Shown: one piece after another, positions 26,982 through 48,274 of the stretch
Layout: each line of letters starts with the position of its first letter
Numbering within the stretch: position 1 is the stretch's first letter
DNA from: a virus
Lineage: Duplodnaviria; Heunggongvirae; Uroviricota; Caudoviricetes
Strand: one strand, 5' to 3'
Length of the DNA: 64,000 nucleotides
Virus record (IMG/VR): IMGVR_UViG_3300025644_000002
The notes under the pieces: generated by a model
Told to the model about the DNA's origin: nothing
The model's input: the letters and a program-made list of their open reading frames with translations, nothing else
Database searches by the model: none
Program-made: the position numbers and the translations under genes

Positions 26982-27191
26982 ATGAGTAAAGTAGGAAACA
27001 ACAGCGGAAAAGATTATATTCTATGTTGTTGTATATGCTCTTCAACTAGAAAGGACATCCACATGGTGGGGCATCGTAATAAAGATAACCACTTAATAGG
27101 CTTCCTTTATGTATGTGATGAACACACTAAACAAGTAGAAGGAAAAAACTTTCAAGTAAAGTTCGTAGATGAAAAAGAGGAGACTAAATAA
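26982..27191 (+). CDS. small Cys-rich zinc-finger protein
   Basis: CCCICSS…CDEH. Confidence 0.4.
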   Translation: MSKVGNNSGKDYILCCCICSSTRKDIHMVGHRNKDNHLIGFLYVCDEHTKQVEGKNFQVKFVDEKEETK

Positions 27192-27888
27192 TATGGGAGA
27201 CGGAACCCCACTAGGTGATCGTATGAAAGATTATGAAGCTACCTATAAATACAAGCTTCACAAAAGAATGCCAGTAATAATAAGAGTAGACGGTAGAGCG
27301 TTTCACACTCTTACAAGAAAATTATATGGAAGAGGATGGTCTACCGGATTCTCTGCAAATATGATGGAAACTGCTAGGGCTTCTATGGAAGATATGCAGT
27401 CAACAAAGTTTTGCTATGGTCAATCTGATGAGATCAGTTTTTTATTAACGGATTATAAAACTCATAACACACAGTCGTGGTTCAATAATTCCATACAGAA
27501 AATAGTATCAATTACAGCAGCTATCGTAAGCACTAACTTTTATTCAATAACTGGCGAAAAAGTGCAGTTTGATGCTAGAGCTTTTAATTTGGCAAAAGAT
27601 GAAGTGACAAACTATTATATCTGGAGACAACAAGATGCTATACGCAACGCTGTCCAGATGGTAGGAAGAGAGCATTTCTCTCAGAAAGAACTTCACATGA
27701 GAAGTGTTGAGAATATAAAACATCTTCTATCCAAAAAGATAGGAATTAATTTTGATGACTTCTCTAGTTTAAGACGACAAGGGTACTGTATAGACAATAA
27801 CCACCCAGATATGAATATCCCAGTGTTTGCCTCAGCTAGGGGTAAAGATTACATTGAAAAACATGTATATTTAATAGAAAATAATTAA
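27169..27888 (+). CDS. Thg1-like protein (tRNA-His guanylyltransferase family 3'-5' nucleotide polymerase)
   Basis: VIIRVDGRAFHTL ~ Thg1 VVVRLDGRNFHRF; CYGQSDEISFLL ~ AYGQSDEYSFVF; YYIWRQQDAIRNA ~ YLSWRQADCHINN. Confidence 0.7.
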   Translation: MKKRRLNNMGDGTPLGDRMKDYEATYKYKLHKRMPVIIRVDGRAFHTLTRKLYGRGWSTGFSANMMETARASMEDMQSTKFCYGQSDEISFLLTDYKTHNTQSWFNNSIQKIVSITAAIVSTNFYSITGEKVQFDARAFNLAKDEVTNYYIWRQQDAIRNAVQMVGREHFSQKELHMRSVENIKHLLSKKIGINFDDFSSLRRQGYCIDNNHPDMNIPVFASARGKDYIEKHVYLIENN

Positions 27889-30810: not shown

Positions 30811-31338
30811 ATGAGTTATTTCATGATAGACATAGAGTCTGACGGGGAATGCCCTGGAATATTCTCTATGGTAGAGTTTGCAGCAATAAGGGTCACGGAA
30901 GCGAAGGACGAGTCCGTCCACGAGCGCCTAAGGCCTATTACTAACCTATGGAAACCTGAAGCTTTAGAAAAGATAGGGGTAACTAGGGAAGAAACTCTTG
31001 GATACGGAGATCCTGAAGAAGCTATAAAAACTTTAGCAGAGTTTGTAAAAGAAACTTCAAAAGGAAGGCCGATGTTTATATCTGATAACAATGGGCATGA
31101 TTGGCAGTTCATAAATTATTACTGTCATAAGTACTTAGGGATAAATCCCTTTGGGCACTCAAGTGCAAACCTAGGAAGTCTTTTTAAAGGGTTGGTTCAA
31201 ACTCCTTTTGAAAACTTCAAACACCTGAGAGATACTCCTCATACACATAGCTCTATCGATGACGCTATGGGTAATTTGGAAGCGTTTCTAAAATTAATAA
31301 AGACTTATAACCTTCCGGGATATTTAGATAAGGAGTAG
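30811..31338 (+). CDS. DEDDh-type 3'-5' exonuclease (DnaQ/RNase T-like)
   Basis: Exo I motif MIDIESDG and Exo III motif HSSIDDAMG. Confidence 0.6.
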   Translation: MSYFMIDIESDGECPGIFSMVEFAAIRVTEAKDESVHERLRPITNLWKPEALEKIGVTREETLGYGDPEEAIKTLAEFVKETSKGRPMFISDNNGHDWQFINYYCHKYLGINPFGHSSANLGSLFKGLVQTPFENFKHLRDTPHTHSSIDDAMGNLEAFLKLIKTYNLPGYLDKE

Positions 31339-33504: not shown

Positions 33505-33579
33505 GGGATGGTAAGCAAAATTGGTTAATGCGACAGGCTGCAACCCTGGACTGTGTCGGTTCGAATCCGACTCATCCCT
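33505..33579 (+). tRNA. tRNA-Cys (GCA)
   Basis: Hand fold: acceptor GGGATGG/TCATCCC, anticodon loop CTGCAAC, T-arm GTCGG-TTCGAAT-CCGAC. Confidence 0.65.
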
Positions 33580-33629
33580 CAATACTTACGATAAGTATTT
33601 TAATTAATAAAAATAATAAGGAACACAAA

Positions 33630-33809
33630 ATGAATTTTAAATTTTTCGGAGCATTAAGATTACTACTGAACTTCTTGACAGGAGTATTTGTAATAGCTGG
33701 AGGAATTATACTACCTAGTACTCCTATTACGATAGCGGGCTGCCTTTTATTAGCAGGGTGGTTAGCCGCGTTTATAGAACGTTACGATTCCCACTATAAA
33801 GGCTGCTAA
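33630..33809 (+). CDS. small membrane protein (MNFKFFGALRLLL…)
   Basis: Track ORF 33528..33809 starts inside the tRNA; likely ATG at 33630. Confidence 0.4.
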   Translation: MNFKFFGALRLLLNFLTGVFVIAGGIILPSTPITIAGCLLLAGWLAAFIERYDSHYKGC

Positions 33810-34123
33810 TGTTAACTACAACATTTACAGTTCACATAATACTAGTTGTATTGCTAGTTCATTGGGTAGCAGATTTCTTGTTTCAAACACAGGAAATGGC
33901 TTCAAAAAAACATGAACACTGGGGCATTCTAATTTTACATTGTGTAGTATATGCCACTGTATTGACGGCGTTTATAATGCTAGCGCCCTCTCTTGGCACA
34001 ATAATAACTATTTCATTAGGAAATGCAGCGCTATGCTGGTCTTTATTATTTATGTCACATTTATGGATAGACGCTGTTACTAGTAGAATAGTAAAAAAAA
34101 GCATTTGCTTTAAACAAAATTAG
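33809..34123 (+). CDS. membrane protein (104 aa)
   Basis: ORF track; multiple TM helices. Confidence 0.45.
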   Translation: MLTTTFTVHIILVVLLVHWVADFLFQTQEMASKKHEHWGILILHCVVYATVLTAFIMLAPSLGTIITISLGNAALCWSLLFMSHLWIDAVTSRIVKKSICFKQN

Positions 34124-34208
34124 GTTTATGTTTAATACTATAGGTTTTGACCAGTTCCTACATTTTGTAGCACTACTATTAATATTAACACTCATAATAT
34201 AAAAACTG

Positions 34209-34280
34209 TGGAGGCGTAGCTGAGTGGTTTAGCAGCGGCCCTTTAAGCCGCCGACGTAGGTTCGATTCCTACCGCCTTCA
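34209..34280 (+). tRNA. tRNA-Lys (TTT) with C33 instead of the universal U33 (anticodon loop CCTTTAA)
   Basis: Hand fold: acceptor GGAGGCG/CGCCTTC, D-stem GCTG/TAGC, anticodon stem GCGGC/GCCGC, T-arm GTAGG-TTCGATT-CCTAC. Confidence 0.6.
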
Positions 34281-34509
34281 CGCCCCCATTAAAAAGGAAC
34301 CAAATGAAAAAAAATAATTGTTTATAATCATGAGCATACAGTAGATGACGCTGTTGCCAAAAGATATGAAGAGTTAATGGATAATCTTCGAGAAGGTTAT
34401 GATAAACTATTAAATTCAGGAATGTTTTTTGAAATTTATCCAGAGCTTACAGGAAACTGGAAAGAAGATGAAGAGGCTTATTTAGCAAAATCAACCAATA
34501 AAAGATAAA

Positions 34510-34761
34510 ATGAAAAAGTCAATTACAATAAATGTGTATATGCAAGACGGAAGAGTATTCAAGTATGAAGTAAGTGATTCAGCAGTGGCTCGAGAGCATG
34601 CACATAGAATAATAACAGAAGGATGGCGTAACGTTGAAAATGGAATTATGAGTTATTATCCAGTTCATCAAGTATTAAAAGTAAGCTTTGAAATGGAAAA
34701 ACTGGATGTTTTAGCTGGTAAGTATCACGCCTCTTCCATTGATTATCCAAAAATGACCTAA
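34510..34761 (+). CDS. hypothetical protein (83 aa)
   Basis: ORF track. Confidence 0.4.
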   Translation: MKKSITINVYMQDGRVFKYEVSDSAVAREHAHRIITEGWRNVENGIMSYYPVHQVLKVSFEMEKLDVLAGKYHASSIDYPKMT

Positions 34762-34772
34762 TAAATTAAATC

Positions 34773-34845
34773 TGTAACGTAGCTCAATTGGTGGAGCGCT
34801 GCACTGTTAATGCAGTGGTTGCGAGTTCGAGTCTCGTCGTTACAG
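34773..34845 (+). tRNA. tRNA-Asn (GTT)
   Basis: Acceptor TGTAACG/CGTTACA is perfect; anticodon loop CTGTTAA. Confidence 0.7.
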
Positions 34846-34864
34846 CAATCAAAAAAGGAAACCT

Positions 34865-35164
34865 ATGGAATTACAAGACGAAATTAATATACTGACTGAT
34901 AAACAGCTGCACAAATTGAATACTAAACGCCTACTATCTTACTATAAATCGATTCGAAATAAGCTACGAAAAACTTGTATGTTTTACTGTTGCGAATTCA
35001 GATGCGAAGTTCTATGGTATGAAGACAAGGATGGAGTTGTTACATCGAGTTATAAAAATGTAACAGATGAAGAAGCTAAGGCTTTAAAGAAGTTAAGTGA
35101 TGATTGGGAAGCCTTCGTTAAACATGTAAAAGCTATTCTAAATACTAGAGAGCATGTCAACTAA
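34865..35164 (+). CDS. hypothetical protein (99 aa)
   Basis: ORF track. Confidence 0.45.
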   Translation: MELQDEINILTDKQLHKLNTKRLLSYYKSIRNKLRKTCMFYCCEFRCEVLWYEDKDGVVTSSYKNVTDEEAKALKKLSDDWEAFVKHVKAILNTREHVN

Positions 35165-35507
35165 ACTAAATCAAAAAAAAACAATAATGATAACTAAAAT
35201 ATGGTACAGTGTACAAAACGGTGGGGATGGAAGTGCTTATCCACAATTAATGGAAAGTGAAAAATTAGCTGAACTAGATCAAGAACATATGGATGAAGGT
35301 TGGGGTGAACCTTGTATCGGTTCAATTCGAATTGAGCATGACGGCCCTATTAAAATTCTCAACAACATTCAAACTGCACAAGAAATAAAAGAAGAAATGG
35401 AAAGAGTTTATAGTAACTATAGTGAGGCTAAAGAAGAGCCTAAAAAATACGAAGCTGTATGTAAACTAGTACAAAAACAAAAACAAAAGGAAACAGAAGA
35501 TGATTAA
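35154..35507 (+). CDS. hypothetical protein (117 aa)
   Basis: ORF track. Confidence 0.45.
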   Translation: MSTKLNQKKTIMITKIWYSVQNGGDGSAYPQLMESEKLAELDQEHMDEGWGEPCIGSIRIEHDGPIKILNNIQTAQEIKEEMERVYSNYSEAKEEPKKYEAVCKLVQKQKQKETEDD

Positions 35508-35856
35508 TATGAAATATAAGAAGACATTATTACTACTAATACCTGCAATAATGTTCTTACTTCACATAGAGGGACTAATATTCTTTTTCATAACTTTAAC
35601 TACTATAGCGTTAATAACATTAGTTATTATACATATAGTAAAGTTAGCGACGACGGACGATTCTTCTGCTATAGATATAAATACCAAGTCAACAGAGATG
35701 TTAAAATTTACTGAAAATTTTTGCACTTCTAAAGAACTAATAATAATAACTTTTGGAACTGCGTTAATAAGTATGTTAGCCGGATTTATGGGTACTGGGA
35801 TTCTTTGGGTAATTACAGCTATCTTAATAATAATACCGAGATATTTATTTAATTAA
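35500..35856 (+). CDS. membrane protein (118 aa)
   Basis: ORF track; multiple TM helices. Confidence 0.45.
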   Translation: MINMKYKKTLLLLIPAIMFLLHIEGLIFFFITLTTIALITLVIIHIVKLATTDDSSAIDINTKSTEMLKFTENFCTSKELIIITFGTALISMLAGFMGTGILWVITAILIIIPRYLFN

Positions 35857-35869
35857 CCAATAAACTACT

Positions 35870-36151
35870 ATGAGTAGAGCTTATGCTTGGATTATAACCG
35901 AAAGCCATCTTGAAAGTTTAAAAGATGAATTAGGAACATTAGGCCCAGGAGGGGCTGTATATTCCGAAGAAGAAATTACAGAATTCGGCAGAAAATTCGA
36001 AATGTATGACGATGATGATATATTATATTACACCGGATATATTTGCGGAGAATACGACGGATTTGAACCACTAGACGATTTTGGTATGCCCAACGCAGGG
36101 TGCACTAGTATCAAACTAGATAGTGGGCATGGAGACATGCTTACGCTATAA
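35870..36151 (+). CDS. hypothetical protein (93 aa)
   Basis: ORF track. Confidence 0.45.
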   Translation: MSRAYAWIITESHLESLKDELGTLGPGGAVYSEEEITEFGRKFEMYDDDDILYYTGYICGEYDGFEPLDDFGMPNAGCTSIKLDSGHGDMLTL

Positions 36152-36287
36152 ATATAATAGTTGGTTATATTAAAAATAATAGTTATATTTAAGAGACCTG
36201 ATAATTGTATCAGAGTGTCATATTAAATATGTGGCATTTGAGTGTGGCAATTCCACACAAATTTGACGTAAACACAAGGTAACAATA

Positions 36288-37139
36288 ATGAATATAAAAA
36301 CCAACCTTACAATTCAAAAGAATCGTTTAAAAGTATATAGCCAATTAGATGTCTGGAATGGCATAGAAGCAACTTATTACTTAAATGATAAAGACGAATT
36401 TGAAATCGAACTTACTAACTTAGAAACTTCTTCCTGTAAATTGAGGATAAAACTTAATGGAAAATATATTTCCAATGGCGGGCTTGTGCTTGACCCTGGA
36501 CAGCATTATTTTCTGGAACGACATATCGAAGTAGATCGAAAGTTTGAATTTTCAACATATAACGTAGAAGATACTGAGGAAATAGACAAAGCTATAGCCG
36601 AGAACGGATTACTAGAGATAGAGTTTTATCGAGAGTCATTTCCTATCGAGCATAAATACTGTAGCCCATACACTAATCCTAATGTCTACCCAAGACCGTT
36701 TACATGGGAAGGTGATATACTAACCAACGATAATACTTGGTGGACCGACCTTGCTGGCGAATTCACGGGAATTAGCGGCATGTCAGCGCCAAGTATGTAT
36801 AGCGCTAGGGGCACAAGATGCTCAAATCCAGCAGAGCCTCAAATGGCTATGGGTATGATAGAAGATAGTGGCGAAGTACTTACAACCGCATGCTTTGCAA
36901 GCGCGCCTATGAAAGAGACGGGTAGAATTAAACAAGGTAGTCATTCAGAACAAAAGTTCGGAAGAAGCTATCAAAAATTTGAGCATACTCCCTCTCATGT
37001 AGTAACCTATAAATTATTACCTATGTCATTAAAACCTATTACGGTAAATGATTTAGAGAAACGTTATTGCCAAAAATGTGGACTTAGACGAAAAAAGTCT
37101 ACCTGGATATGTTGTCCAGCGTGTACAACTAGATATTAA
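36288..37139 (+). CDS. hypothetical protein with a C-terminal zinc ribbon (283 aa)
   Basis: CQKCG…CCPAC at the C-terminus; TATAAATA at 36148-36155 upstream. Confidence 0.5.
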   Translation: MNIKTNLTIQKNRLKVYSQLDVWNGIEATYYLNDKDEFEIELTNLETSSCKLRIKLNGKYISNGGLVLDPGQHYFLERHIEVDRKFEFSTYNVEDTEEIDKAIAENGLLEIEFYRESFPIEHKYCSPYTNPNVYPRPFTWEGDILTNDNTWWTDLAGEFTGISGMSAPSMYSARGTRCSNPAEPQMAMGMIEDSGEVLTTACFASAPMKETGRIKQGSHSEQKFGRSYQKFEHTPSHVVTYKLLPMSLKPITVNDLEKRYCQKCGLRRKKSTWICCPACTTRY

Positions 37140-37142
37140 TAT

Positions 37143-37170
37143 ATAAACGGGGTTTCGGCCCCGTTTTTCT
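37143..37170 (+). terminator. Rho-independent terminator (CGGGG…CCCCG + T5)
   Basis: acggggtttcggccccgtttttc. Confidence 0.5.
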
Positions 37171-37182
37171 TTATGGAGATTT

Positions 37183-38199
37183 ATGACTAGCAAAATAGAA
37201 GTAGATAAAAAACAAATTGATAAATTTAGGAAAAAAGAGATTACAAGTTCAGAATTATATAATAATAGTGAACCTGAAACTTTTTTATCCGAAGATAGCC
37301 AGAATAGCGCCCTACTCCCCGAAGATAAAAACCTAAATCTTGAAAACGTAACCTCTGGATATTTAACCAATGAACAAGGAACTTTTTTACCAGCTTCAGC
37401 TTTTGTAAAAATTTTACCAGCAGGGTATTATGAAGTATTAGAATCTAGAGGAGCCGCCGTAGAGTTCTTAAATATTGAGCTAGAAGCCTCGGACCTAATT
37501 TTATTTAGTAATTCAATAGCTGAAGAAATATTATTAGAATTAGGAAAATTTTGGAAACTTGGATCAGCTTATAAAGCTTGGGGAGAAAGCCATAAAAGAG
37601 GAATTCTAATTTATGGTGGAGACGGCTCAGGAAAAAATAGTACAATGAAAATAGTAATGTCAAATTGTATTCAAAAAGGATATTTAGTATTTGATAGCTC
37701 TTTTGTAGTATCAGAAGGTATTACTAGAATAAGAGATATTGAGGGGAATAGGCCCATACTTGTTATAATTGAAGACATTGACAGAATTATAATGGATCCA
37801 GTAGCTGAAGCAAAGATTCTGGATTTACTAGATGGAATAGGAGTAATAAATAATGTTGTATTTTTAGCTACAACTGCTTATCCAGAACGGCTTCCTACAT
37901 CTTTAAAAAATAGACCTTCGAGGTTTGACAGGGTTATGCACCAGGATTACCCAGATGAAATTACTCGTAAAAAATATTTACAATTAAAGAGTAGTTTAAA
38001 GGGTAAAGAATTAAATACTTGGGTAAAAGATACTAATAACTGGTCTTTCGCACATATTAAAGAACTCATAGTAAGCGTCATAATGTTAGATACAGATTAT
38101 AAAGTATCAATAGACAGAATTAATAAACTAAGGCAAGAGGTAGCTACGTCTGAAGTAGCAATTTCTTCTCATAATATAGGCTTTAAAACAAAAAGGTAA
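37183..38199 (+). CDS. AAA+ ATPase
   Basis: Walker A GGDGSGKNST, Walker B ILVIIEDID. Confidence 0.55.
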   Translation: MTSKIEVDKKQIDKFRKKEITSSELYNNSEPETFLSEDSQNSALLPEDKNLNLENVTSGYLTNEQGTFLPASAFVKILPAGYYEVLESRGAAVEFLNIELEASDLILFSNSIAEEILLELGKFWKLGSAYKAWGESHKRGILIYGGDGSGKNSTMKIVMSNCIQKGYLVFDSSFVVSEGITRIRDIEGNRPILVIIEDIDRIIMDPVAEAKILDLLDGIGVINNVVFLATTAYPERLPTSLKNRPSRFDRVMHQDYPDEITRKKYLQLKSSLKGKELNTWVKDTNNWSFAHIKELIVSVIMLDTDYKVSIDRINKLRQEVATSEVAISSHNIGFKTKR

Positions 38200-38202
38200 A
38201 TA

Positions 38203-39276
38203 ATGAATACAGTCCTAACAGTTTTAGAAACCCAAATAAAGGAAGGGTGGGTAAAGCGAAGAAAACATCCAGAGTTTCCACTTTGGATATATAATTATAC
38301 CCATGCCACACAGTATGCTCGAAATTGGAACGATACCACTACTAGATGTAGGGGTCTTATACTAGATGAATATGGAACTGTAGTAGCCAACCCTTTTAGA
38401 AAATTTTTCAACTATACAGAATTAGAAGGACTAGGTATCGAGCTCCCAGATGACCACTACAGCATTTTTAATAAACTAGACGGATGTCTATTTATAATGG
38501 TTATGTGGAGGGGGCATTTAATTAAATCTACAAGAGGCTCTTTTGATAATGAATATATTACAGAGGCCAATGTAGTCTTAGAAGAAAAATACCCTGACCT
38601 TACTATAAGGGAGGACTTCACATACTGCTATGAGTTCTTAACACCTACTCTTAAGAAAGGGGGGATGACCTGTATCACCTACCCAGAGAGCGACCTAAGG
38701 CTATTGGCAGTACGCGATACGTTTACTGGCAGAGAGATAGGGTTGCACGCTGTTACTACTTGTATACCAAGAACAGAGCTATATGAACATGATTGCGATG
38801 TAAGTGAGTTATATAATGTACCAAATCAAGAAAACAAAGAAGGATTTGTGTTAGCATATGATAACGGGTTCAGAGTTAAAGTAAAATTTGACTGGTATGT
38901 AAGACATCACCGTATATTGCAGCTTTGCAATGATAAAACGGTATGGAAATACTTATCAGATCCAGAATTAGATATACAAGAGTTAATTGATATTGTACCA
39001 GATGAATACTATAAATGGCTTCATACCTCTATAGATAACTTTAGAGAGAATTATGTGATATTAGCAAACACTGCTTGTAAACAATACATGCACCTTATAA
39101 CTAGTTTCCCAGAATCAATTGATATGAAAAAACGAACTTCCAAAGCAGTAGCAGAAAAAGTCATAAATATTGGAAATAAACAAATAATTTCTTTAGTATT
39201 TACAATGTTACAAGGGAAAAACATAAAGCCCTTAATTTGGAAATATTTAAAACCAAAACAAACGGAGAAAAAATGA
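38203..39276 (+). CDS. rnlA: RNA ligase 1 (T4 RnlA-like)
   Basis: Motif I FNKLDGCL; EGFVLAYDNGFRVKVKFDWYVRHH ~ T4 Rnl1 [24 protein letters not shown]. Confidence 0.65.
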   Translation: MNTVLTVLETQIKEGWVKRRKHPEFPLWIYNYTHATQYARNWNDTTTRCRGLILDEYGTVVANPFRKFFNYTELEGLGIELPDDHYSIFNKLDGCLFIMVMWRGHLIKSTRGSFDNEYITEANVVLEEKYPDLTIREDFTYCYEFLTPTLKKGGMTCITYPESDLRLLAVRDTFTGREIGLHAVTTCIPRTELYEHDCDVSELYNVPNQENKEGFVLAYDNGFRVKVKFDWYVRHHRILQLCNDKTVWKYLSDPELDIQELIDIVPDEYYKWLHTSIDNFRENYVILANTACKQYMHLITSFPESIDMKKRTSKAVAEKVINIGNKQIISLVFTMLQGKNIKPLIWKYLKPKQTEKK

Positions 39277-39437
39277 AAAATCCCGGATTCATACTATTTA
39301 TAGTATTACTTGTCCTAAAGTTAGTTGGAGTCATTACATGGAGTTGGTGGTGGATAACTGCCCCGCTGTGGCTTGGCTTCGTCTTATTATTTTTAGCTGT
39401 AGGCGGTATAGCTGCAATTGCAAGTTGGCTCGATTAG
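39237..39437 (+). CDS. small membrane protein
   Basis: ORF track; two TM helices. Confidence 0.4.
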   Translation: MEIFKTKTNGEKMKNPGFILFIVLLVLKLVGVITWSWWWITAPLWLGFVLLFLAVGGIAAIASWLD

Positions 39438-39939
39438 ATATTTACTAATACTACTCACAAATATATGTTTATGCGTTGGAGCCTTACCTGAGGAATGGAA
39501 AGCTTTAACAAGCCATCAACAAGAATCAATACGGGCATCCTATGAATATGGGGTGCCCTTTGATTTAGGGTGGACATTAGCTGCTATTGAGTGGCAAGAA
39601 TCTGCAGGAGGTAAATACCTTGTAAATTTGCAAGACCCTTCCGCAGGAGCTCACCATATCAATATCAACACATATATGAGTAGACATAGAGATGAGATAG
39701 AGGACACACCCTTTAATAGGAATGTAGTGGCCCAATGGCTCATAGATAGTCACATACTTAGTTGTAGAGAAGCAATAACTGAACTAACCTATTGGAAGAA
39801 TGAGAGACATAATGGTAGCTGGTCCAAAACTGTAAGATCCTACAGGGCGGGCAATCGCTGGGAGTCTCCAGCAGGTTGGCAATATTATAAAAGTATAACA
39901 GCCAGAATAAACTTTTTAAAACAAGAATGGAAATTATAA
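39418..39939 (+). CDS. hypothetical protein (173 aa)
   Basis: ORF track. Confidence 0.45.
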   Translation: MQVGSIRYLLILLTNICLCVGALPEEWKALTSHQQESIRASYEYGVPFDLGWTLAAIEWQESAGGKYLVNLQDPSAGAHHININTYMSRHRDEIEDTPFNRNVVAQWLIDSHILSCREAITELTYWKNERHNGSWSKTVRSYRAGNRWESPAGWQYYKSITARINFLKQEWKL

Positions 39940-39940
39940 A

Positions 39941-41005
39941 ATGAGACATTTAGCAACAATCCAACTCATAGCTAATTTAGAGCCTATCTCTGGAGCAGAT
40001 GTAATTGAAAAAGCAACTGTAAAAGGCTGGCATCTAGTAGTTAAGAAGGGGGAATTTCAAATAGGTGATAAATGCGTCTACTTTGAAGTGGACTCTTTGT
40101 TGCCAGAAATAGAGCCGTTTGAATTCTTAAAGAAAAACGGTGTCAAAACAATAGATGACGGCACAAGAGGTTATCGCTTACGAACTATAAAATTGCGTAA
40201 GCAAATTAGTCAAGGGCTAGCCATGCCATTAGATACTTTCGAAGAGCTCGCCGATGGCCCCGAAGTGGGAACAGACGTAAGTGAACTTTTGAAAGTAGTA
40301 AAATATGAAGCACCCATTCCAGCATGCTTAAGTGGCCAGATTAAAGGCCACAGACCTTCCTGGATTCCTAAGACGGATGAAGAACGTGTACAGAATCTTG
40401 TAGATGAAATAAAAGAATGGGCAGGAACAGAGTGCTACATAACAGAGAAATTAGATGGATCGTCATCTACCTTTTATTATGCACCTAACTACCGAAAAGC
40501 AACACCTTTCGGAGTATGCAGTCGGAAGCTTGACCTAATAGAGAATGACAAAAATTCTTTCTGGAAAGTCGCTAGAGATATTGACGCAGAAGAGAAAATG
40601 TCTAAACTTGGTATAAATGTAATTTTCCAAGGAGAATTACTGGGGCCAGGGATTCAGAAAAATAAATACAAATTGTCTGCTACAGAAGTAAAAATGTTTA
40701 ACGCTTTTACTATACAAGATGGTGGCTTTGGAAGTATTGAGAGCTTTCTAAATCTTATATTTGGGGACTACACAACTGAGGGGGAAGTTCGCGTACGAGG
40801 GTTAGATAGAATATTTAATACTGTACCTGTCCTTAATCCAAAGATGGTGTTAAACCATACAGTAGACGAATTAGTAGAGCTTTCTAAAGGCCCAAGCCTT
40901 CTAAATCCTGATATCCCAAGAGAGGGAATTGTGATTAGAGCGAGAGATGGTAGCTTTAGTTTTAAAGTAATTAACCCTGACTTCTTAATTAAGTTTGGAG
41001 AATAA
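39941..41005 (+). CDS. rnlB: RNA ligase 2-like nucleotidyltransferase (Rnl2 family) with an extra N-terminal domain
   Basis: Motif I TEKLDGSS; FQGELLGPGIQKNKYKL ~ T4 Rnl2 FGEFAGPGIQKNVDY; motifs EGIVIR and SFKVINPDF. Confidence 0.6.
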   Translation: MRHLATIQLIANLEPISGADVIEKATVKGWHLVVKKGEFQIGDKCVYFEVDSLLPEIEPFEFLKKNGVKTIDDGTRGYRLRTIKLRKQISQGLAMPLDTFEELADGPEVGTDVSELLKVVKYEAPIPACLSGQIKGHRPSWIPKTDEERVQNLVDEIKEWAGTECYITEKLDGSSSTFYYAPNYRKATPFGVCSRKLDLIENDKNSFWKVARDIDAEEKMSKLGINVIFQGELLGPGIQKNKYKLSATEVKMFNAFTIQDGGFGSIESFLNLIFGDYTTEGEVRVRGLDRIFNTVPVLNPKMVLNHTVDELVELSKGPSLLNPDIPREGIVIRARDGSFSFKVINPDFLIKFGE

Positions 41006-41389
41006 ATGAAAAGTAACCAGCTTTTAAAAACACTGAAAGATGGCGATATAGTATTAATGGTGCTTCCTGGGTTATATGAGCCTTCAGTGTTAGAGATATG
41101 CCAACTCAAAAATACTAAATTCATTCCAAAGGGTGAGGGGCGCTCTTTCGACTGGTTAGACTTTGACTCTGACACTTTGTATGTAAATACTCGCGTACAT
41201 AGTTCACAGTTAGGTGAATCAGCTGGAAACTGTTTGTCAATAACAGAAGTGATAGCTCCCGAGCATCTTGAACAATTTGCACGAAATAAAGATATGTGGA
41301 AAGCATCTTTATACCAATACTCTGACGTTGAGTACAAACACGCCCAGAGTACGGCGGAGAGTTCTATAAAGTTATGGGATAGAGACTAA
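41006..41389 (+). CDS. hypothetical protein (127 aa)
   Basis: ORF track. Confidence 0.45.
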   Translation: MKSNQLLKTLKDGDIVLMVLPGLYEPSVLEICQLKNTKFIPKGEGRSFDWLDFDSDTLYVNTRVHSSQLGESAGNCLSITEVIAPEHLEQFARNKDMWKASLYQYSDVEYKHAQSTAESSIKLWDRD

Positions 41390-41413
41390 GCCATAAATAA
41401 AAGGAAATACAAA

Positions 41414-42328
41414 ATGAGACAAGTAATAATACTACGGGGGTTACCCGCAAGCGGTAAGACTTCGTATGCCGTAGATATGATGGATAAAATGCCAGATACA
41501 TACAAACGTGTAAATAGGGATAGTCTACGAAGCATGGTTGATGGTGGAGTATACTCTAAAGGAAATGAGAAAATAATTAAAGCAATTAGAGACTCTTTAA
41601 TCTTTAGATACTTAGATGCCGGAAGATCAGTATTCGTAGATGATACAAACTTACACAGCTCAAATGAGGAGCATATTAGAAAAATAGTGGCGGACTATAA
41701 CATTTTACGGGAAGTTAAGCACGACGTATTAGTTGTGGTTAGAGAATTCCCTACAGATGTATTTGATGCCATTGATCGAGACGCATTACGTACAGGATCG
41801 GCCCATGTAGGCTCTAAAGTTATTTATGATATGTACAGTAGGTTTCTAAAGAAAGATGAGCCTCACGACTATCCTGAGCCTCCAGGCACGGTTGAGTTGG
41901 TAGACGGCTTACCTAAGGCAATCATTTGTGACTTAGACGGCACGATGGCATTCCTTAAAGGCCGTAACCCTTATGACGCCTCTACTTGTGAGAACGATAC
42001 TTACAATGCGATTTTGGGGGAAATTCTTCACGTTATGGACAAACAGGGATACCAAATAATCTTTTTATCTGGAAGATCGGAAAAATACCTTTCAGAAACT
42101 AGACAGTTTTTGAAAGCAAACCTTCCGTTTCCTCATTGGAAGATGTTCATGAGACCATTGTTTGAGCATAATATAAGAGATTCAATTCTTAAACGCAAAC
42201 TTTATGATGAACACGTTAAAGATAAATACAACGTATTTTGCGTGTTTGATGATAGAGACCAAGTAGTTGGTCTATGGCGTAAAGACTTAGGTCTACAATG
42301 TTTCCAAGTAAACTACGGAAACTTCTAA
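41414..42328 (+). CDS. pnk: polynucleotide kinase / 3'-phosphatase (T4 Pnk-like)
   Basis: N-terminal P-loop GLPASGKTS; C-terminal HAD motif ICDLDGT. Confidence 0.65.
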   Translation: MRQVIILRGLPASGKTSYAVDMMDKMPDTYKRVNRDSLRSMVDGGVYSKGNEKIIKAIRDSLIFRYLDAGRSVFVDDTNLHSSNEEHIRKIVADYNILREVKHDVLVVVREFPTDVFDAIDRDALRTGSAHVGSKVIYDMYSRFLKKDEPHDYPEPPGTVELVDGLPKAIICDLDGTMAFLKGRNPYDASTCENDTYNAILGEILHVMDKQGYQIIFLSGRSEKYLSETRQFLKANLPFPHWKMFMRPLFEHNIRDSILKRKLYDEHVKDKYNVFCVFDDRDQVVGLWRKDLGLQCFQVNYGNF

Positions 42329-42382
42329 ATTAATAAACTGACGAAATAATAACATACAAGTTAGAAAAGGAAAAAAAACAAA

Positions 42383-43246
42383 ATGCAAAAATTGCACTTC
42401 TTAATAATTGATCCACAAAACTCTTTTATGGATCGAAACAATGATTTAGTCTTACTTCAAAAAGCCGGCATAAATTTGGCGGATATAGGATTACGACTTC
42501 CAGAACCAGAATTACCGGTACCGGGGGCTTATGAGGACTCTGAGAGGTTAGCTATGGTGCTTAACCGCTTAAGAGGTAAAATTACTGGGATCCACGTGAC
42601 GCTAGATACCCACCAATTGTTGGATATTTCGCATCCATTATTTTGGATGAATAGTGCTGGAGAACATCCGGGCCCGTTTACACTTATAAGTCTAGACGAC
42701 TTAAACGGATCAGTTTGGACACCGACTAGCCCAGATCGAATTCCAAGAGCCAGAGCTTACCTGCAAGCTCTCCAAGACAACGACAGATACCTTCTGTGTA
42801 TATGGCCACCACATTGTAAAGTGGGCACATGGGGCCACAATGTAGTAGATGTTGTAAACGCAGAACTTGAAGCCTGGGAAGAAAGCAGAAAACGCAGAAT
42901 AAACTATGTTACAAAAGGACACAACCCTTGGACAGAACATTACTCTGGCGTTATTGCTGATGTACCTGACGATGAAGATCCTACTACGCAGTTAAACGTC
43001 ACTCTTTTAAAACTTTTAAAAGACGCAGACATAATTGCCCTTTCAGGTCAGGCTCTATCACACTGTGTAGCTAATACAGTTAAAGATATTGCAGACAACT
43101 TCGGAGAAGAGAATATCAAAAAACTAGTACTGCTTGAAGACACTTCTTCAAATGTTACTGGGTTTGAGAAATTGGGTACCGACTTTGTAACGGAAATGGT
43201 TTCACGCGGTATGCAGATCTGTAAAGCTGAAGACTTTTTGAAATAA
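42383..43246 (+). CDS. isochorismatase-family hydrolase, putative nicotinamidase (PncA-like)
   Basis: LIIDPQNSF resembles the isochorismatase/nicotinamidase N-terminal motif; fits the NAD salvage set. Confidence 0.45.
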   Translation: MQKLHFLIIDPQNSFMDRNNDLVLLQKAGINLADIGLRLPEPELPVPGAYEDSERLAMVLNRLRGKITGIHVTLDTHQLLDISHPLFWMNSAGEHPGPFTLISLDDLNGSVWTPTSPDRIPRARAYLQALQDNDRYLLCIWPPHCKVGTWGHNVVDVVNAELEAWEESRKRRINYVTKGHNPWTEHYSGVIADVPDDEDPTTQLNVTLLKLLKDADIIALSGQALSHCVANTVKDIADNFGEENIKKLVLLEDTSSNVTGFEKLGTDFVTEMVSRGMQICKAEDFLK

Positions 43247-43276
43247 ACAAACACACAAAGATAAAGGAGATTATCA

Positions 43277-44041
43277 ATGGTAGATACCATGCAAAGTGTG
43301 GACTTATTAGGAGCTGGAAATTTTAAGTTTTCAGCAATAGGCTTAGATGAACTAGAAGCCTCCGAATATACCTTAGTAGGTATAGTCGTTGACATTACCG
43401 GATCAGTGGGCGGTTATGAAACTATGTTACAAAAGATGATTGAAGAAATAGTGGGGGCATGTAAAATGTCTGCACGTTCTGAAAATCTACTTGTTAGGGT
43501 AACACTGTTTAATAGTCAGACTGATATTTTGGAAATCCATGGATTTAAGCCTGTAAACGATATAGATTTAAGTGAGTATTCAGGGAAATTAGTACCTGAC
43601 GCAGCTACTAACCTGTTTGATGCCACTTATGATATGATCGGATCAATTGAACAGTATGGTAAATCCCTAGCGGACCAGGAATACAGTGTAAATGCTGCCG
43701 TGTATGTTATTACAGACGGAGATGATAATTCTTCGACTATGACAGCCACTAATGTAAAGGACAGAATACACTCCATTAAACGTGCCGAAGAATCAATTGA
43801 ATCTTTAATTTCCGTATTAATCGGGATAGGCACAGACGGCAACCATGGTTGGGGCTCTAGGGTTTCACAACTATTAAAAGAGTTTAAAGATGATGCAGAC
43901 CTCACGCAATATATTGATGCGGGCAATGCAAATGCTAAAACTCTTGCAAAATTAGGGAATTTCATTAGCCAAAGCATTAGTTCACAGAGCCATTCACTTG
44001 GCACTGGCGGACCTTCTGCTCAAGCTAGTATGAAATTCTAA
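43277..44041 (+). CDS. von Willebrand factor A domain protein (TerY-like)
   Basis: MIDAS DITGSVGG…TDGDDN. Confidence 0.55.
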   Translation: MVDTMQSVDLLGAGNFKFSAIGLDELEASEYTLVGIVVDITGSVGGYETMLQKMIEEIVGACKMSARSENLLVRVTLFNSQTDILEIHGFKPVNDIDLSEYSGKLVPDAATNLFDATYDMIGSIEQYGKSLADQEYSVNAAVYVITDGDDNSSTMTATNVKDRIHSIKRAEESIESLISVLIGIGTDGNHGWGSRVSQLLKEFKDDADLTQYIDAGNANAKTLAKLGNFISQSISSQSHSLGTGGPSAQASMKF

Positions 44042-44072
44042 CTTACAAAACGTACGTAAGAAACGGCGTAAC

Positions 44073-44140
44073 GGGGCGGTATCTCAGCAGGGTAGAGTTA
44101 GGGGATACCCTAGACATTGGTTCGAATCCAATCCGCGCTG
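44073..44140 (+). tRNA. tRNA-like gene (68 nt) whose anticodon arm is replaced by a TAGGG-GATA-CCCTA tetraloop hairpin
   Basis: Acceptor GGGGCGG/CCGCGCT, D-arm, canonical T-arm ATTGG-TTCGAAT-CCAAT, but no 7-nt anticodon loop can be folded. Confidence 0.35.
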
Positions 44141-44169
44141 TTACGTTCGTTCTTATTAAAAGGAAAACT

Positions 44170-44949
44170 ATGAACATAGATTCACATTTTATTCAAGGGG
44201 CCACTCATCGGGTTTGTGAAGATTATACACTTCATGGGGAAACAGATGAGATAGCTTATATTATTGTATGTGATGGGTGTTCAAGCGCTCCTCACACAGA
44301 TTTTGGAGCTAGATTAATAGCCCATAGTGTAGAACAAGCCATTAGAGAATTTGGAGAGCTGACTCGTCAAAAATTAGAGTGGCAACTTCAATTATGTAAA
44401 GGTTATACTGATGTCCAAGGCCTGGACCGCCGTATGCTGCTGTCAACTGTGTTGGTAGCTATCTATAATAAAGAAAAACAAAGCTTTTATATTCTTATGG
44501 CCGGAGATGGACATTGTTTCTTAGATTCAAAAGAAGGACCGCTTCATATAGATATTCAATCACCTCATAATACTCCATACTATCCTGCGTATAACATTAC
44601 TCGAAAAGATCAGGAAGAATACAAAGAGTGTTTAAAGGACAAAGGACAAACAGTTGTTCACATGAATGATGGTGACGAGGATCCTACCAATGTAGCATTA
44701 GAAACTGGAATGCCCTTTATATTTCAGCCTGATTACCCGATAGCTTCGGTAATTTTAACTACTGATGGTATAGACCAAGTAATAGATAGGGATACTGGAG
44801 AGAGAGTAGTGATTGATGATATCATCACTCATTTCCCAAGTGCCGCAGGAGCATTCGCTGTAAGAAAACTAAGGTTTCTTAAGAAAACCTGGAATAGAAA
44901 TTATATTACTAACGCAGACGATATTGGAATTGCTGGAATAATATTATGA
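44170..44949 (+). CDS. PP2C-family Ser/Thr phosphatase
   Basis: VCDGCSSAPHTDFGA ~ PP2C xDGxGGxxxG motif; sits between the vWA and kinase genes. Confidence 0.5.
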   Translation: MNIDSHFIQGATHRVCEDYTLHGETDEIAYIIVCDGCSSAPHTDFGARLIAHSVEQAIREFGELTRQKLEWQLQLCKGYTDVQGLDRRMLLSTVLVAIYNKEKQSFYILMAGDGHCFLDSKEGPLHIDIQSPHNTPYYPAYNITRKDQEEYKECLKDKGQTVVHMNDGDEDPTNVALETGMPFIFQPDYPIASVILTTDGIDQVIDRDTGERVVIDDIITHFPSAAGAFAVRKLRFLKKTWNRNYITNADDIGIAGIIL

Positions 44950-46637
44950 AGGTTTTAGTACAAGGAAAGGGGCAAGTATCATTATTAGACTCTAATTTTG
45001 TAGCTCAAGGTGGAGAGGGTAAAGTATATGTAAAAGGTGGAAGAGCTTATAAAATATTTCATGACCCAAAAACTATGATACCTGAAGAAAAAATTAGGGA
45101 ACTGTCAGTTCTTACTAAGAATACCATTATAAAACCTGAGAATTTAATTTACACTACAAAAAACACGTTAATAGGATTTATGATGCAGACTGTACCTCAG
45201 TCTATTCCATTACCAAGAATGTTTACATCTGCGTATCTTAATAGAAACAATTTAAATAACGATACCGTTACTAAATTAGTTACAAATATTAAGGATACAA
45301 TTAGTCATGTGCACGATCATGACATAATAATGGTCGATGGTAACGAATTAAATTATTTAATAGAAACTAGAAAGCATACTACTGCTTATTGTATAGATGT
45401 AAACTCATGGCAAACTCCTAATTATCCAGCTACAGTAATTATGCCCTCTATTAGAGATTGGCATGCTACAGAATTCACAGAAATTTCAGATTGGTTTTCC
45501 TTCGCTGTAATAGCTTGTCAACTGTTTATAGGAATTCACCCATATAAGGGAAAGAATTCTCACTTTAAACGAGCTACATTAGAAGAACGTATGAGAGCAA
45601 ACGTATCAATCTTTAACCCTGAAACGCGTGTTCCGGGCGCAGTAAGGGACTTTACAAATATACCTAAGAGTTATTATGATTGGTTTAAAGAAGTATTTGA
45701 AAATGGTTATAGAAGTACTCCTCCAGACATGAAAGGGCAGTACATTATACTTCCAATAACTCCTATAATAACAACACACACCGGAAGCAAATATTTTACA
45801 ATACAACAATTAAACGATTATCCTGGCGACATAATTGACTGCACTTATTTTGGTAGACAGTATATAATATATACCAAAAAAGATGTTGTCATATATAACA
45901 ATAATAGTTATATTAAAGATACCACCTCCAAGGTTTTTTCACACAGTATGTCTCAAAAGACGTTTCTTGTGAAAACTAAGGATGAATCTTTAGTATACAG
46001 ATCATTGGAAGATAGCCAATCTCCTTATCATAGTACAAATATTAAGGTTGAAAAAACTATGATATACGAAAATAGGCTATATGGCGTAAACAAGGATAGA
46101 TTTTTTGAAATAGATGTATTAGATACCGGCTCAAAGCCTACGTTTTATATTTTAAATACTTGGGAAATATTCAATAATTCTACAGAAATGTTAGATGGAG
46201 TATTATGTTCTAGTATTTTAGGTAAAACTCATTTATATTTACCATACGCACCCAACAAATGTGCAATTGTAGCAATTCCTGAACTAGATAAGTACAAGAT
46301 AATTGATGCAAAATGCCGAGACAGGGTTTGTATGATAATAGGACAATCAGGCAGCAAGTATGATAAATTTATTATCGTATTCGATGAAAATTTCAAAAAA
46401 TATGATATAAGAATCTTGAAGGACGCAGATAATATGTTGAATTTTATCTGCCTACCTAACGGATTAACTATAAGTATACATGAAGATGGCGCTTTAGAAA
46501 TGTTTCGCGCTAAGGCTTCAAGTGATGTGCAGGTCTACAAAGACTCTGCCATCAAGTCGTCGATGACACTGGCCCACGAGGGCAATATTGTTCGGTTCTA
46601 TGAAATGAATCGGATGTATCAACTAAAAATGAAATAA
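44946..46637 (+). CDS. eukaryotic-like Ser/Thr protein kinase
   Basis: Gly-rich loop AQGGEGKVYV, AYKIF (VAIK-like), DWFSFAVIACQLFIGIHPYKG (DxWSxG…P). Confidence 0.55.
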   Translation: MKVLVQGKGQVSLLDSNFVAQGGEGKVYVKGGRAYKIFHDPKTMIPEEKIRELSVLTKNTIIKPENLIYTTKNTLIGFMMQTVPQSIPLPRMFTSAYLNRNNLNNDTVTKLVTNIKDTISHVHDHDIIMVDGNELNYLIETRKHTTAYCIDVNSWQTPNYPATVIMPSIRDWHATEFTEISDWFSFAVIACQLFIGIHPYKGKNSHFKRATLEERMRANVSIFNPETRVPGAVRDFTNIPKSYYDWFKEVFENGYRSTPPDMKGQYIILPITPIITTHTGSKYFTIQQLNDYPGDIIDCTYFGRQYIIYTKKDVVIYNNNSYIKDTTSKVFSHSMSQKTFLVKTKDESLVYRSLEDSQSPYHSTNIKVEKTMIYENRLYGVNKDRFFEIDVLDTGSKPTFYILNTWEIFNNSTEMLDGVLCSSILGKTHLYLPYAPNKCAIVAIPELDKYKIIDAKCRDRVCMIIGQSGSKYDKFIIVFDENFKKYDIRILKDADNMLNFICLPNGLTISIHEDGALEMFRAKASSDVQVYKDSAIKSSMTLAHEGNIVRFYEMNRMYQLKMK

Positions 46638-46649
46638 TCAAGACAACAA

Positions 46650-47036
46650 ATGAGCAATTTATACTCAAAATTAAGTGACGATAAAAAATATGATGCAGTA
46701 GACTTCGTACTGTACTGGAACGAGCCAAACGTAATGGTTGAGCTATTAGTACCAGGTTATCAGGCTTCTAACATTAAAATTAGAATAGCTAAGGCTGGAA
46801 CTGCGTTCGGCAATTCGCCTTCAACTCATGACCGCCTGTTAGTGACAGCTGGACCGGATAAAGAGATTGGTAAAGGAACTTTCTGTAAAGGTTTCTATAA
46901 CGAATTTCCATTACAGAACGGTGAACATTTTAATTATGGAAAATTAACTAGTTCGCTAGTTCGTGGTGTTTTAACCATCGCCATACCTGTAAAAGGGAAA
47001 TTCACTCCACAGGAGTTCACAGTTAGCGAAGGCTAG
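46650..47036 (+). CDS. Hsp20 / alpha-crystallin-family small heat shock protein
   Basis: …GKLTSSLVRGVLTIAIPVK C-terminal alpha-crystallin-like beta strands. Confidence 0.45.
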   Translation: MSNLYSKLSDDKKYDAVDFVLYWNEPNVMVELLVPGYQASNIKIRIAKAGTAFGNSPSTHDRLLVTAGPDKEIGKGTFCKGFYNEFPLQNGEHFNYGKLTSSLVRGVLTIAIPVKGKFTPQEFTVSEG

Positions 47037-47100
47037 CGCTTCTATGTAGATCGTCAATAAAAGACATTATAAAGCTTAACCGCTTTATATCTTTGAAATT

Positions 47101-47140
47101 AGGCCCGGCGATCACTCGCTGGGTCTTTTTTTTAACAATT
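47101..47140 (+). terminator. Rho-independent terminator (CCCGGCGA…TCGCTGGG + T9)
   Basis: ggcccggcgatcactcgctgggtcttttttttaac. Confidence 0.5.
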
Positions 47141-47161
47141 ATTAACAATAGGGAATTATAA

Positions 47162-47839
47162 ATGAGATTATTAATGAGAGCGTTAGTAGGAAGTAGATTG
47201 CATGGGTTAGATACTCCTATAAGTGATTTCGATTATAAAACTGTATTTATTGAGACTACTTCAAATATTTTAGCTTTACCAGAGCACCAGCCCAGCGATC
47301 CAAAGGATCCAGCAGATACCTGGGAATTAGCTAGATTTCTACATTTCGCATTAAGAAGTAATCCTACAATTCTGGAAACTTTTAAAGCGACATTTACTAC
47401 AGAAAACGAGAACTGGTGTGAAGAGTTAAGAAGTCTATTTCCAGACGTTTGGAGTTCTAAATTAGTTTTCCACTCGTACAGGGGTTATGCTCAATCGCAA
47501 CGCAAAAAGCTTTTAGAAAATGATGAAGCCCTTAGTAATGGAAATGTAGAATTAGATACCATTAGAAAAAGAAAATCATCAGCGGCCTGGTTAAGAATGT
47601 TATATAATGGATACGAACTATTACAAACTGGCGATTTTACAGCCAGAATAGCTGATACAGAAGTAGGCATTCTTTGCAGAAAATATAAGGAAGGCGAATC
47701 TACTATACCAGAGGTTATAAAAACTTGTAGCTCTTGGGAAGAAAAACTAGAAGACGCGTTTAATAAGTCTACAAAAAAAGAAGCTAACTCAAAATTAGTA
47801 AATGATTTTCTATTAAAAATAAGAAAAGTTTCTTGGTAA
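47162..47839 (+). CDS. minimal nucleotidyltransferase (Pol-beta superfamily)
   Basis: GSRLHGLDTPISDFDY matches GS…SDxD. Confidence 0.45.
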   Translation: MRLLMRALVGSRLHGLDTPISDFDYKTVFIETTSNILALPEHQPSDPKDPADTWELARFLHFALRSNPTILETFKATFTTENENWCEELRSLFPDVWSSKLVFHSYRGYAQSQRKKLLENDEALSNGNVELDTIRKRKSSAAWLRMLYNGYELLQTGDFTARIADTEVGILCRKYKEGESTIPEVIKTCSSWEEKLEDAFNKSTKKEANSKLVNDFLLKIRKVSW

Positions 47840-47840
47840 T

Positions 47841-47911
47841 GCGGCTATCGTCTAATGGTAGGACACAACCTTGCCATGGTTGGAATGTCGGTTCAAATCC
47901 GTCTAGCTGCT
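47841..47911 (+). tRNA. tRNA-Gly (GCC)
   Basis: Acceptor GCGGCTA/TAGCTGC, anticodon loop TTGCCAT. Confidence 0.65.
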
Positions 47912-47932
47912 CAAATAAATAGAAAGGGCAAC

Positions 47933-48202
47933 ATGAGTTATAAACACAATCAACGACAACACGCTGTAAAAAGATTTGAAGAGCGTTATGATATTACGTT
48001 GACCAAAAAGCTAAGAAAAGAATTATTGAATAGAATTAGGAACGAGTATAACGACCAAGGAGTAAGCGTTCTAGAAAAAGTAGGACACAGGTTAGTTATG
48101 ATTATTGAGCAAAATAGCATTAGATACAAAGTAGTATATGATAAGAAAACTAATGAAATTGTCACAGCTTTACCAATTAAAGCGGCTATGGTCCAACGGT
48201 AA
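47933..48202 (+). CDS. hypothetical protein (89 aa, MSYKHNQRQHAVKRFEERYDI…)
   Basis: Track ORF 47855..48202 begins inside the tRNA; ATG at 47933. Confidence 0.45.
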   Translation: MSYKHNQRQHAVKRFEERYDITLTKKLRKELLNRIRNEYNDQGVSVLEKVGHRLVMIIEQNSIRYKVVYDKKTNEIVTALPIKAAMVQR

Positions 48203-48252
48203 GACTTCTGACTTCCACTCAGACGATGAGAGTTCGATTCTCTCTAGTTGCT
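48182..48252 (+). tRNA. tRNA-Gly (TCC)
   Basis: Acceptor GCGGCTA/TAGTTGC (two GU pairs), anticodon loop CTTCCAC; overlaps the 3' end of the preceding CDS. Confidence 0.6.
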
Positions 48253-48274
48253 CAAATAAAACCAATAAAAAACA

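Follow-up and report, generated by a model that had tools for sequence, protein, structure and literature searches.

A stretch of 64,000 nucleotides from a Caudoviricetes virus (IMG/VR record IMGVR_UViG_3300025644_000002; the whole stretch is referred to here as the window) carries on its + strand the gene for a protein that is, judged by family, predicted fold and active site, an intact bacterial-type Thg1-like protein (TLP). The enzyme is probably a general, anticodon-independent repair enzyme that would restore tRNA 5' ends on a template, as one component of a tRNA maintenance kit, and would be able to restore G-1, the extra 5' nucleotide of tRNA-His.

That the gene encodes a Thg1-like 3'-5' polymerase was the original prediction, and it is borne out by profile hidden Markov models, by a solved structure, by the predicted fold and by the catalytic residues. 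The three sequence blocks on which the prediction had drawn, RVDGRAFH, YGQSDEISF and YYIWRQQDA, are all present exactly as quoted in the open reading frame (ORF) at 27169..27888. The Pfam Thg1 profile (PF04446), which had been proposed as a check, matches the protein with 81.6 bits against a gathering cut-off of 29.2 bits (E=6.1e-23; profile positions 2-126 of 130). The match to PHROG 4717, 'tRNA-His guanylyltransferase', aligns TLP residues 14-215 with positions 4-211 of the 250 in that profile (E=8e-68); no NCBIfam model matches the TLP.

The closest solved structure is that of the Bacillus thuringiensis TLP (BtTLP; 4KGK), with 40% identity over 199 aligned residues (E=4.9e-43); the sequence match to archaeal TLP (5AXK) has E=2.3e-11 and that to eukaryotic Thg1 about 1e-5. 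An AlphaFold2 model of the TLP, computed from an alignment of 35 sequences with the TLP itself among them, has a mean predicted local distance difference test score (pLDDT) of 89.5 and a predicted template modelling score (pTM) of 0.86. When this model is submitted to Foldseek, the best 32 PDB matches are all Thg1/TLP chains, with template modelling (TM) scores of 0.88-0.90 for BtTLP (4KGM), 0.78-0.82 for archaeal TLP and about 0.7 for eukaryotic Thg1, that is, in the same order as the ranking by sequence E-value. By both measures, the modelled protein is nearer to the characterised TLPs, which are of the templated repair type, than to eukaryotic Thg1.

The catalytic carboxylates of the family (D29/D76/E77 in hTHG1, D30/D75/E76 in BtTLP) and the residues of activation and nucleotidyl transfer (K44, S75, N161, and R27, K96, R133 in ScThg1) have been assigned individual roles (PMC3701042). 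The counterparts of the BtTLP carboxylates are D33, D79 and E80 of the TLP (numbering of a 231-residue protein; codons at 27289-27291 and 27427-27432, within the RVDG and QSDE motifs). These are invariant in the 35-sequence alignment, as are R31, S78, K103, R129 and N140, the set that aligns with ScThg1 R27, K96, R133, S75 and N161. The C-terminal domain is also kept across homologues.

BtTLP is thus the best match in sequence as well as in structure, and shares with the window protein its length class (about 230-245 residues), the carboxylates and the nucleotidyl-transfer residues; it is a bacterial protein, in contrast to the phage-encoded TLP of the window. Archaeal TLP (5AXK-5AXN, in complex with tRNA-Phe) shares the fold and has an active site of the templated-repair type, but is more distant (about 28% identity when aligned by structure). 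The eukaryotic Thg1 enzymes (human 3OTB, C. albicans 3WBZ, yeast 5XOX) belong to the same superfamily and share its palm-like catalytic core, but their similarity to the window protein is weak (E about 1e-5, 16-22% identity).

The gene had originally been placed at 27169-27888. This span is indeed an uninterrupted + strand ORF of 239 codons, the longest version of the gene, but the true start is most likely the ATG at 27193, 24 nt farther in, which would yield a protein of 231 residues. The assignment follows from the position of the stop codon of the upstream ORF (TAA, 27189-27191), from a GAGGAG motif at 27177-27182, and from the call of the identical protein in public collections, which starts at the same ATG and has 231 residues.

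27193..27888 (+): coding sequence of the Thg1-like protein (TLP), 231 aa, from profile, structure, active-site and start evidence
27177..27182 (+): GAGGAG, Shine-Dalgarno/ribosome-binding site 10 nt upstream of ATG 27193, read from the sequence

The upstream ORF (26982-27191) specifies a Cys-rich product of 69 residues, and the ribosome-binding site of the TLP gene lies within its end, which suggests that translation of the two may be coupled. ORFs on the minus strand within the TLP gene are short (59 and 61 aa) and are given no weight. A scan for promoters and terminators around the TLP gene yields counts that are not above those of shuffled sequence.

From homology to BtTLP, we infer that the chemistry of the TLP is templated 3'-5' addition to activated 5' ends. 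The enzyme would use ATP or GTP to activate the 5'-monophosphate end of an RNA, and would next add nucleotides in the 3'-5' direction, with the opposite (3') strand of the acceptor stem serving as Watson-Crick template. (Whatever the identity of a 5'-truncated tRNA, bacterial and archaeal TLPs repair it on a template, and they also add G-1 opposite C73; PMC3701042, PMC6471195.) With regard to substrate and role in the phage, we infer repair: the TLP would rebuild the 5' ends of phage or host tRNAs after loss of nucleotides and, if processing or damage removes G-1 from tRNA-His, would re-add it opposite C73. Since the phage tRNA-His has C73, this addition would be templated. Eukaryotic Thg1 adds G-1 opposite A73 without a template and in dependence on the His anticodon (PMC6471195); C73, unlike A73, makes such a non-templated step unnecessary for the phage tRNA-His.

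The repair role is favored because the gene content of the window (ligases, PNKP, RlaP and tRNAs) fits it. The TLP would operate within a toolkit comprising 22-23 phage tRNAs, Pnkp, two RNA ligases, an RlaP nucleotidyltransferase and an RNase T-like exonuclease, as follows.

38203..39276 (+): Rnl1-type RNA ligase, T4 RnlA-like (phrog_562, E=1.8e-52; Pfam RNA_lig_T4_1)
39941..41005 (+): second RNA ligase, with PHA02142 OB-fold and RNA_ligase domains (phrog_968, E=1.8e-73; PF21189, PF09414)
41414..42328 (+): polynucleotide kinase-phosphatase, T4 Pnkp-like (phrog_505, E=2.6e-74; PF25109 HAD_PNKP, E=3e-42)
47162..47839 (+): RlaP-family Pol-beta nucleotidyltransferase, 'RNA repair pathway DNA polymerase beta family' (PF10127, E=8e-22; phrog_388)
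30811..31338 (+): RNase T-family (DEDD) exonuclease-like ORF (precomputed Pfam PF00929 match on an identical contig)
33505..63272 (all +): array of 22 tRNA genes found by ARAGORN, interspersed with ORFs; only four encode CCA
19045-19116: extra tRNA found by Rfam only (58.7 bits) and missed by ARAGORN, with an atypical anticodon loop, AUAUUAA

The RNase T-like ORF is a possible trimmer of tRNA ends, and the RlaP gene ends two bases ahead of the start of a tRNA-Gly gene. The RNA-repair island (37183-47839) also holds an AAA ATPase, a PP2C phosphatase and a weakly protein kinase-like ORF (563 aa). The window encodes homologues of both T4 repair enzymes, Pnkp and Rnl1, and adds to them the second ligase and RlaP; from these genes the phage is predicted to have a capability for tRNA healing and sealing. 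T4 is not known to have a TLP, and its pathway mends breaks in the anticodon loop rather than 5' ends. The RNA-repair gene set described by Iyer et al. in 2021 is present within the same 64 kb (Rnl1, second ligase, PNKP, RlaP and 22-23 tRNAs).

Several observations weigh against this assignment of function. The Lys that contacts ATP (BtTLP K43, ScThg1 K44) and is the family consensus is replaced in the window protein by Arg; this substitution, known here from sequence, is a conservative one. The TLP gene lies about 10 kb upstream of the ligase and PNKP genes, and is not in an operon with them. The small ORFs around it have no PHROG match. In a comparison with 80 IMG/VR TLP loci, taking 10 kb around the TLP, none of the 14 ORFs that flank the window gene has a homologue, and a ligase, PNKP or RlaP is detectable in only six of the 80. 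Because the neighbors are unmatched and so few loci show linkage, the connection of the TLP with RNA repair rests on co-occurrence in a single genome and not on an operon. A search of the literature retrieved no experimental study of any phage TLP. Finally, we know of no defense nuclease that strips nucleotides from tRNA 5' ends.

A candidate substrate of the TLP in the window is a tRNA-His, which is immediately preceded by a tRNA-Thr.

53611..53695 (+): tRNA-Thr(UGU), 85 nt, found by ARAGORN; discriminator C at 53694, followed by C and then by the G that is position -1 of tRNA-His
53696..53784 (+): tRNA-His(GUG) including G-1 (gene 53697-53784, 88 nt), found by ARAGORN and Rfam; candidate TLP substrate

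The original prediction had noted a GUG tRNA whose position 1 is mismatched to position 72, and this is confirmed by ARAGORN, by the Rfam alignment and in two assemblies. In the ARAGORN call, T1 is opposite C72, the discriminator is C73 and CCA is encoded; the Rfam covariance-model alignment agrees on this register, and 1:72 is marked there as a non-canonical pair. The sequence of the tRNA-Thr/tRNA-His block does not differ between two independent assemblies from different samples, and is therefore not an assembly error. Two further details had not been remarked on. Base -1 (53696), the single base separating the two genes as called by ARAGORN, is G and faces C73, so that a bacterial-type G-1:C73 pair is encoded in the genome. 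In addition, a 14-nt insertion gives tRNA-His a long variable arm. The adjoining tRNA-Thr also has a long variable arm, generated by an 11-nt insertion (both relative to the Rfam tRNA model); to our knowledge, cellular tRNA-Thr and tRNA-His have no such arms.

These features bear on the alternative that the TLP is a dedicated tRNA-His maturase, which we consider unlikely. RNase P would cut the precursor at +1, the U1.C72 mismatch having destabilized an isolated G-1:C73 pair, and the TLP would then add G-1 for charging by the host histidyl-tRNA synthetase (HisRS). A tRNA-His with C73, encoded CCA and U1.C72 next to the -1:73 pair is what such a scheme calls for, the public name of the family is tRNA-His guanylyltransferase, and enzymes of the BtTLP type add G-1 opposite C73 in vitro (PMC6471195). 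On the other hand, the tRNA-His that depends on Thg1 for maturation is one without an encoded G-1, and at 53696 the window has G opposite C73; a requirement for G-1 addition is weakened accordingly. The same holds for three of the four tRNA-His genes detected near a TLP (10 kb or less) in IMG/VR loci: these have G at -1 (with C73, C73 and A73), and the remaining one has T at -1 and T73. Moreover, the characterised TLPs favor truncated tRNAs of any identity (PMC3701042).

A phage that lacks a TLP provides the complementary case. A pattern scan of IMG/VR retrieves four phage tRNA-His genes that have acceptor positions 2-7 and the T arm of the window tRNA-His, one of them from the cultured Streptomyces phage Blueeyedbeauty. 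All four are T(-1) G1:C72 C73 where the window has G(-1) T(+1). The Blueeyedbeauty gene (NC_048720.1 74266-74340; locus L087 24266-24340) has a 29-nt 3' end in common with the window tRNA-His, C73 and encoded CCA; it has T at -1, and hence no G-1 in the genome, yet tblastn for a TLP in the 130 kb genome of this phage yields nothing better than E=2.4. The proposition that presence of a TLP predicts a tRNA-His without encoded G-1 is thus unsupported (three of four TLP-linked genes have G-1, and TLP-less Blueeyedbeauty has T-1), on a comparison whose sample is small.

A scan of metagenomes with the same tRNA-His pattern adds one further copy of these genes and two tRNA-Thr(GGU), none of them from the phage of the window. 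Because close relatives of that phage are absent from the databases searched, there is no orthologous tRNA-His with which to analyze covariation. A BLAST match in a Lak-A1 phage, taken up as a candidate tRNA-His, proved to be tRNA-Asn. The tRNA array of Blueeyedbeauty is surrounded by Band-7, Rnl1, PNKP and Ro-like genes, much as in the window. The tRNA-His genes of two of the IMG/VR loci, L027 (13713-13786) and L070 (3202-3275), both within 10 kb of a TLP, have tandem U.U at 4:69 and 5:68, and resemble in this respect the tRNA-Ala(UGC) of the window, which also has tandem U.U.

That the TLP acts on RNA other than tRNA, extending or modifying the 5' ends of other phage or host transcripts, or that it is an inactive relic, is improbable. 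Its gene does not share an operon with tRNA or repair genes, and the physiological substrates of bacterial TLPs are not established (PMC3701042). Yet every family member that has been assayed works on tRNA-like acceptor stems (PMC3701042, PMC6471195), the family is widespread and maintained in large, tRNA-rich phages, and retention of all catalytic residues and of the C-terminal domain across homologues speaks against a relic.

Besides that of tRNA-His, the original prediction had pointed to several other mismatched acceptor stems and to editing of 5' ends as a possible function. An acceptor pair that is neither Watson-Crick nor G-U is found in seven of the 22 tRNAs of the window.

53696..53784: tRNA-His, U1.C72
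58393-58470: initiator-like tRNA-Met, C1.A72
58529-58604: 'Ala(GGC)', an odd paralogue, C1.A72
49032-49104: tRNA-?(cc), at 4:69 and 5:68; atypical anticodon loop of 6 nt
49454-49528: tRNA-Ala(UGC), tandem U.U at 5:68 and 6:67; G3.U70 intact
tRNA-Asp: at 7:66
tRNA-Tyr: at 7:66

Six further mismatched calls do accompany tRNA-His, then, but four have their mismatches at positions 4-7 and two are C1.A72, which is a normal feature of bacterial initiator tRNA. The 'Ala(GGC)' gene, which has A33 and an encoded CCA and lies 58 nt downstream of the initiator-like tRNA-Met, is missed by Rfam when the gathering threshold is applied.

The window has an excess of mismatched tRNAs over the other phage loci collected (7/22 vs 20/235; Fisher p=0.0037). 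In those loci, the proportion is the same with and without anchoring to a TLP (13/152 vs 7/83; p=1). The proposition that a TLP predicts mismatched acceptor stems is therefore unsupported, and the excess seen in the window is not a general property of TLP-carrying phages. In the TLP-dependent editing that is known, replacement is confined to between one and three nucleotides at the 5' end (PMC6471195). Several mismatches in positions 1-3 would mark organelle-type editing; in the window tRNA-His (U1.C72) alone qualifies.

A third alternative, that the TLP is the polymerase of a 5' editing activity like that of amoebozoan mitochondria, in which mismatched 5' nucleotides of tRNA-His (U1), and possibly the deeper mismatches of other phage tRNAs, are removed and resynthesized from the 3' strand, is very unlikely: the excess of mismatches, the presence of the deviating base on the 5' strand (homologues have G1:C72) and the recurrence of the mismatch in independent assemblies are in its favor, but tRNA-His is the only non-initiator tRNA mismatched in positions 1-3, mismatches are no more frequent at TLP-linked loci, no candidate 5' nuclease was identified, and several of the mismatched genes resemble degenerate or atypical tRNAs. 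The comparison with the Dictyostelium/Acanthamoeba mitochondrial system (DdiTLP3) has the same two sides. A TLP coexists with acceptor-mismatched tRNAs, and tRNA-His deviates on the 5' strand at position 1; the other non-initiator mismatches lie at 4-7, and no correlation was seen across phage loci. Repair and the three alternatives all accord with the identity of the protein.

A more specific form of the editing idea can be stated, although we give it very little credence: that tRNA-His is non-functional as transcribed and becomes chargeable only when it is remodeled in dependence on the TLP, with removal of U1 (and G-1) and resynthesis of G1 and G-1 from C72 and C73. If true, tRNA 5' editing, known until now from eukaryotic organelles only, would have its first case elsewhere, and the remodeled tRNA-His would be the first physiological substrate of a bacterial-type TLP. 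In a wider form, the idea would extend to the mismatch-rich tRNA set of the phage.

Repair of tRNA 5' ends, the preferred function, has been proposed for phage Thg1 proteins before. The Thg1 gene of Bacillus phage Bc431v3 was noted in 2013 as a possible modifier of phage or host tRNAs (PMC3601020), and Iyer et al. (2021) list Thg1 among the RNA-repair functions of jumbo phages, restoring nucleotides of tRNA 5' ends (PMC7824862). The phage genes of PHROG 4717 (Bc431v3 gp143 and those of XacN1, CcrColossus and Lak phages) share their PHROG with the window TLP, come likewise from large, tRNA-rich phages and have been the subject of a similar published proposal, namely modification or repair of tRNAs of the phage or the host; XacN1 is a Xanthomonas phage and CcrColossus a Caulobacter phage, in contrast to the uncultured marine lineage of the window. 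By tblastn, 164 GenBank phage records contain a TLP homologue. Among them are phages that infect Bacillus, Prevotella (Lak), Caulobacter, Mycobacterium, Erwinia and Xanthomonas; most of the homologues are already labelled tRNA-His guanylyltransferase. At least 596 IMG/VR stretches have a TLP match, and GTDB species-representative genomes yield 180 TLP pattern matches, many on contigs of metagenome-assembled genomes (MAGs). The window protein itself is only about 37-42% identical to any GenBank phage homologue, and about 50-55% to its nearest metagenomic homologues. JGI names its 239-aa version tRNA(His) guanylyltransferase, and at NCBI the identical protein (MBT6050810.1) is listed as hypothetical and assigned to a 'Candidatus Scalindua sp.' MAG. 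With phage Thg1 genes annotated and discussed since 2013 (PMC3601020, PMC7824862), the TLP is not new as a kind. As genome annotation the finding is routine, and the fitting label is Thg1-like 3'-5' RNA polymerase, starting at 27193.

The phage itself represents an uncultured marine jumbo-phage lineage without a close relative in the databases. A megablast comparison of 4 kb of the window with 50,697 phage records gives no match, and an exact-peptide scan of IMG/VR for close relatives retrieves only a 42%-identical TLP. Identical copies of the TLP and of a nicotinate phosphoribosyltransferase (NAPRTase) also encoded in the window are found in many metagenomic samples, on dozens of contigs that reach 211,738 bp in length; the next-best homologues of both are about 53-55% identical. 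Both proteins are deposited in identical form at NCBI under the 'Candidatus Scalindua sp.' MAG, amid gene content that is that of a jumbo phage. The bacterial label most likely reflects binning of a phage contig into a bacterial MAG; this binning may or may not be a hint that 'Candidatus Scalindua' is the host. An attempt to derive the host from GTDB genomes was dropped (the best matches are about 50% identical and are found in MAGs of unrelated phyla).

The NAPRTase gene belongs to an NAD+ salvage/ADP-ribose block (51214-57634) that includes NADAR, NAD synthetase, Nudix and cytidylyltransferase-family proteins, together with a HAD-family protein and a nucleoside deoxyribosyltransferase-like protein, with tRNA genes interleaved. 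The block is probably a counter-measure to NAD+-depleting defenses; gene content of this sort has been tied to countering host attacks on tRNAs and NAD+ (PMC7824862).

Some other features of the window deserve mention. Two adjacent ORFs just upstream of the TLP region (25874-26281 and 26282-26905) share the C-terminal peptide ERQGLL, a sign of possible tandem duplication; a PHROG search matches neither of them. A calcineurin-like metallophosphatase gene (50385-51092) has an in-frame TAG (50568-50570) between its GDxxDG and GNHD motifs, and is split by gene callers into ORFs of 61 and 153 aa. A tRNA with anticodon CUA is located at 62186-62262 (called 'Pyl' by ARAGORN; Rfam tRNA, 58.9 bits). 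Either the amber codon is read through by means of a phage-encoded suppressor tRNA, as the combination suggests, or the gene is a pseudogene. A second candidate for read-through lies at 30508-31338, where TAG closes a first ORF (30508-30804) and the RNase T-like ORF begins 6 nt downstream in the same frame; the stop of the latter is again TAG, with TAA after it. Global TAG recoding is not indicated in the window, where TAG terminates six of 40 long + strand ORFs.

The TLP gene is of interest because experimental work on phage TLPs is lacking and the physiological role of bacterial-type TLPs is still unsettled. This phage unites an intact TLP, a tRNA-His with an odd 5' end (G-1, U1.C72, C73 and CCA) and a full RNA-repair gene set. 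Its tRNAs are concrete substrates with which G-1 restoration, repair of 5' ends damaged by nucleases or mismatch editing by phage TLPs can be tested in vitro.

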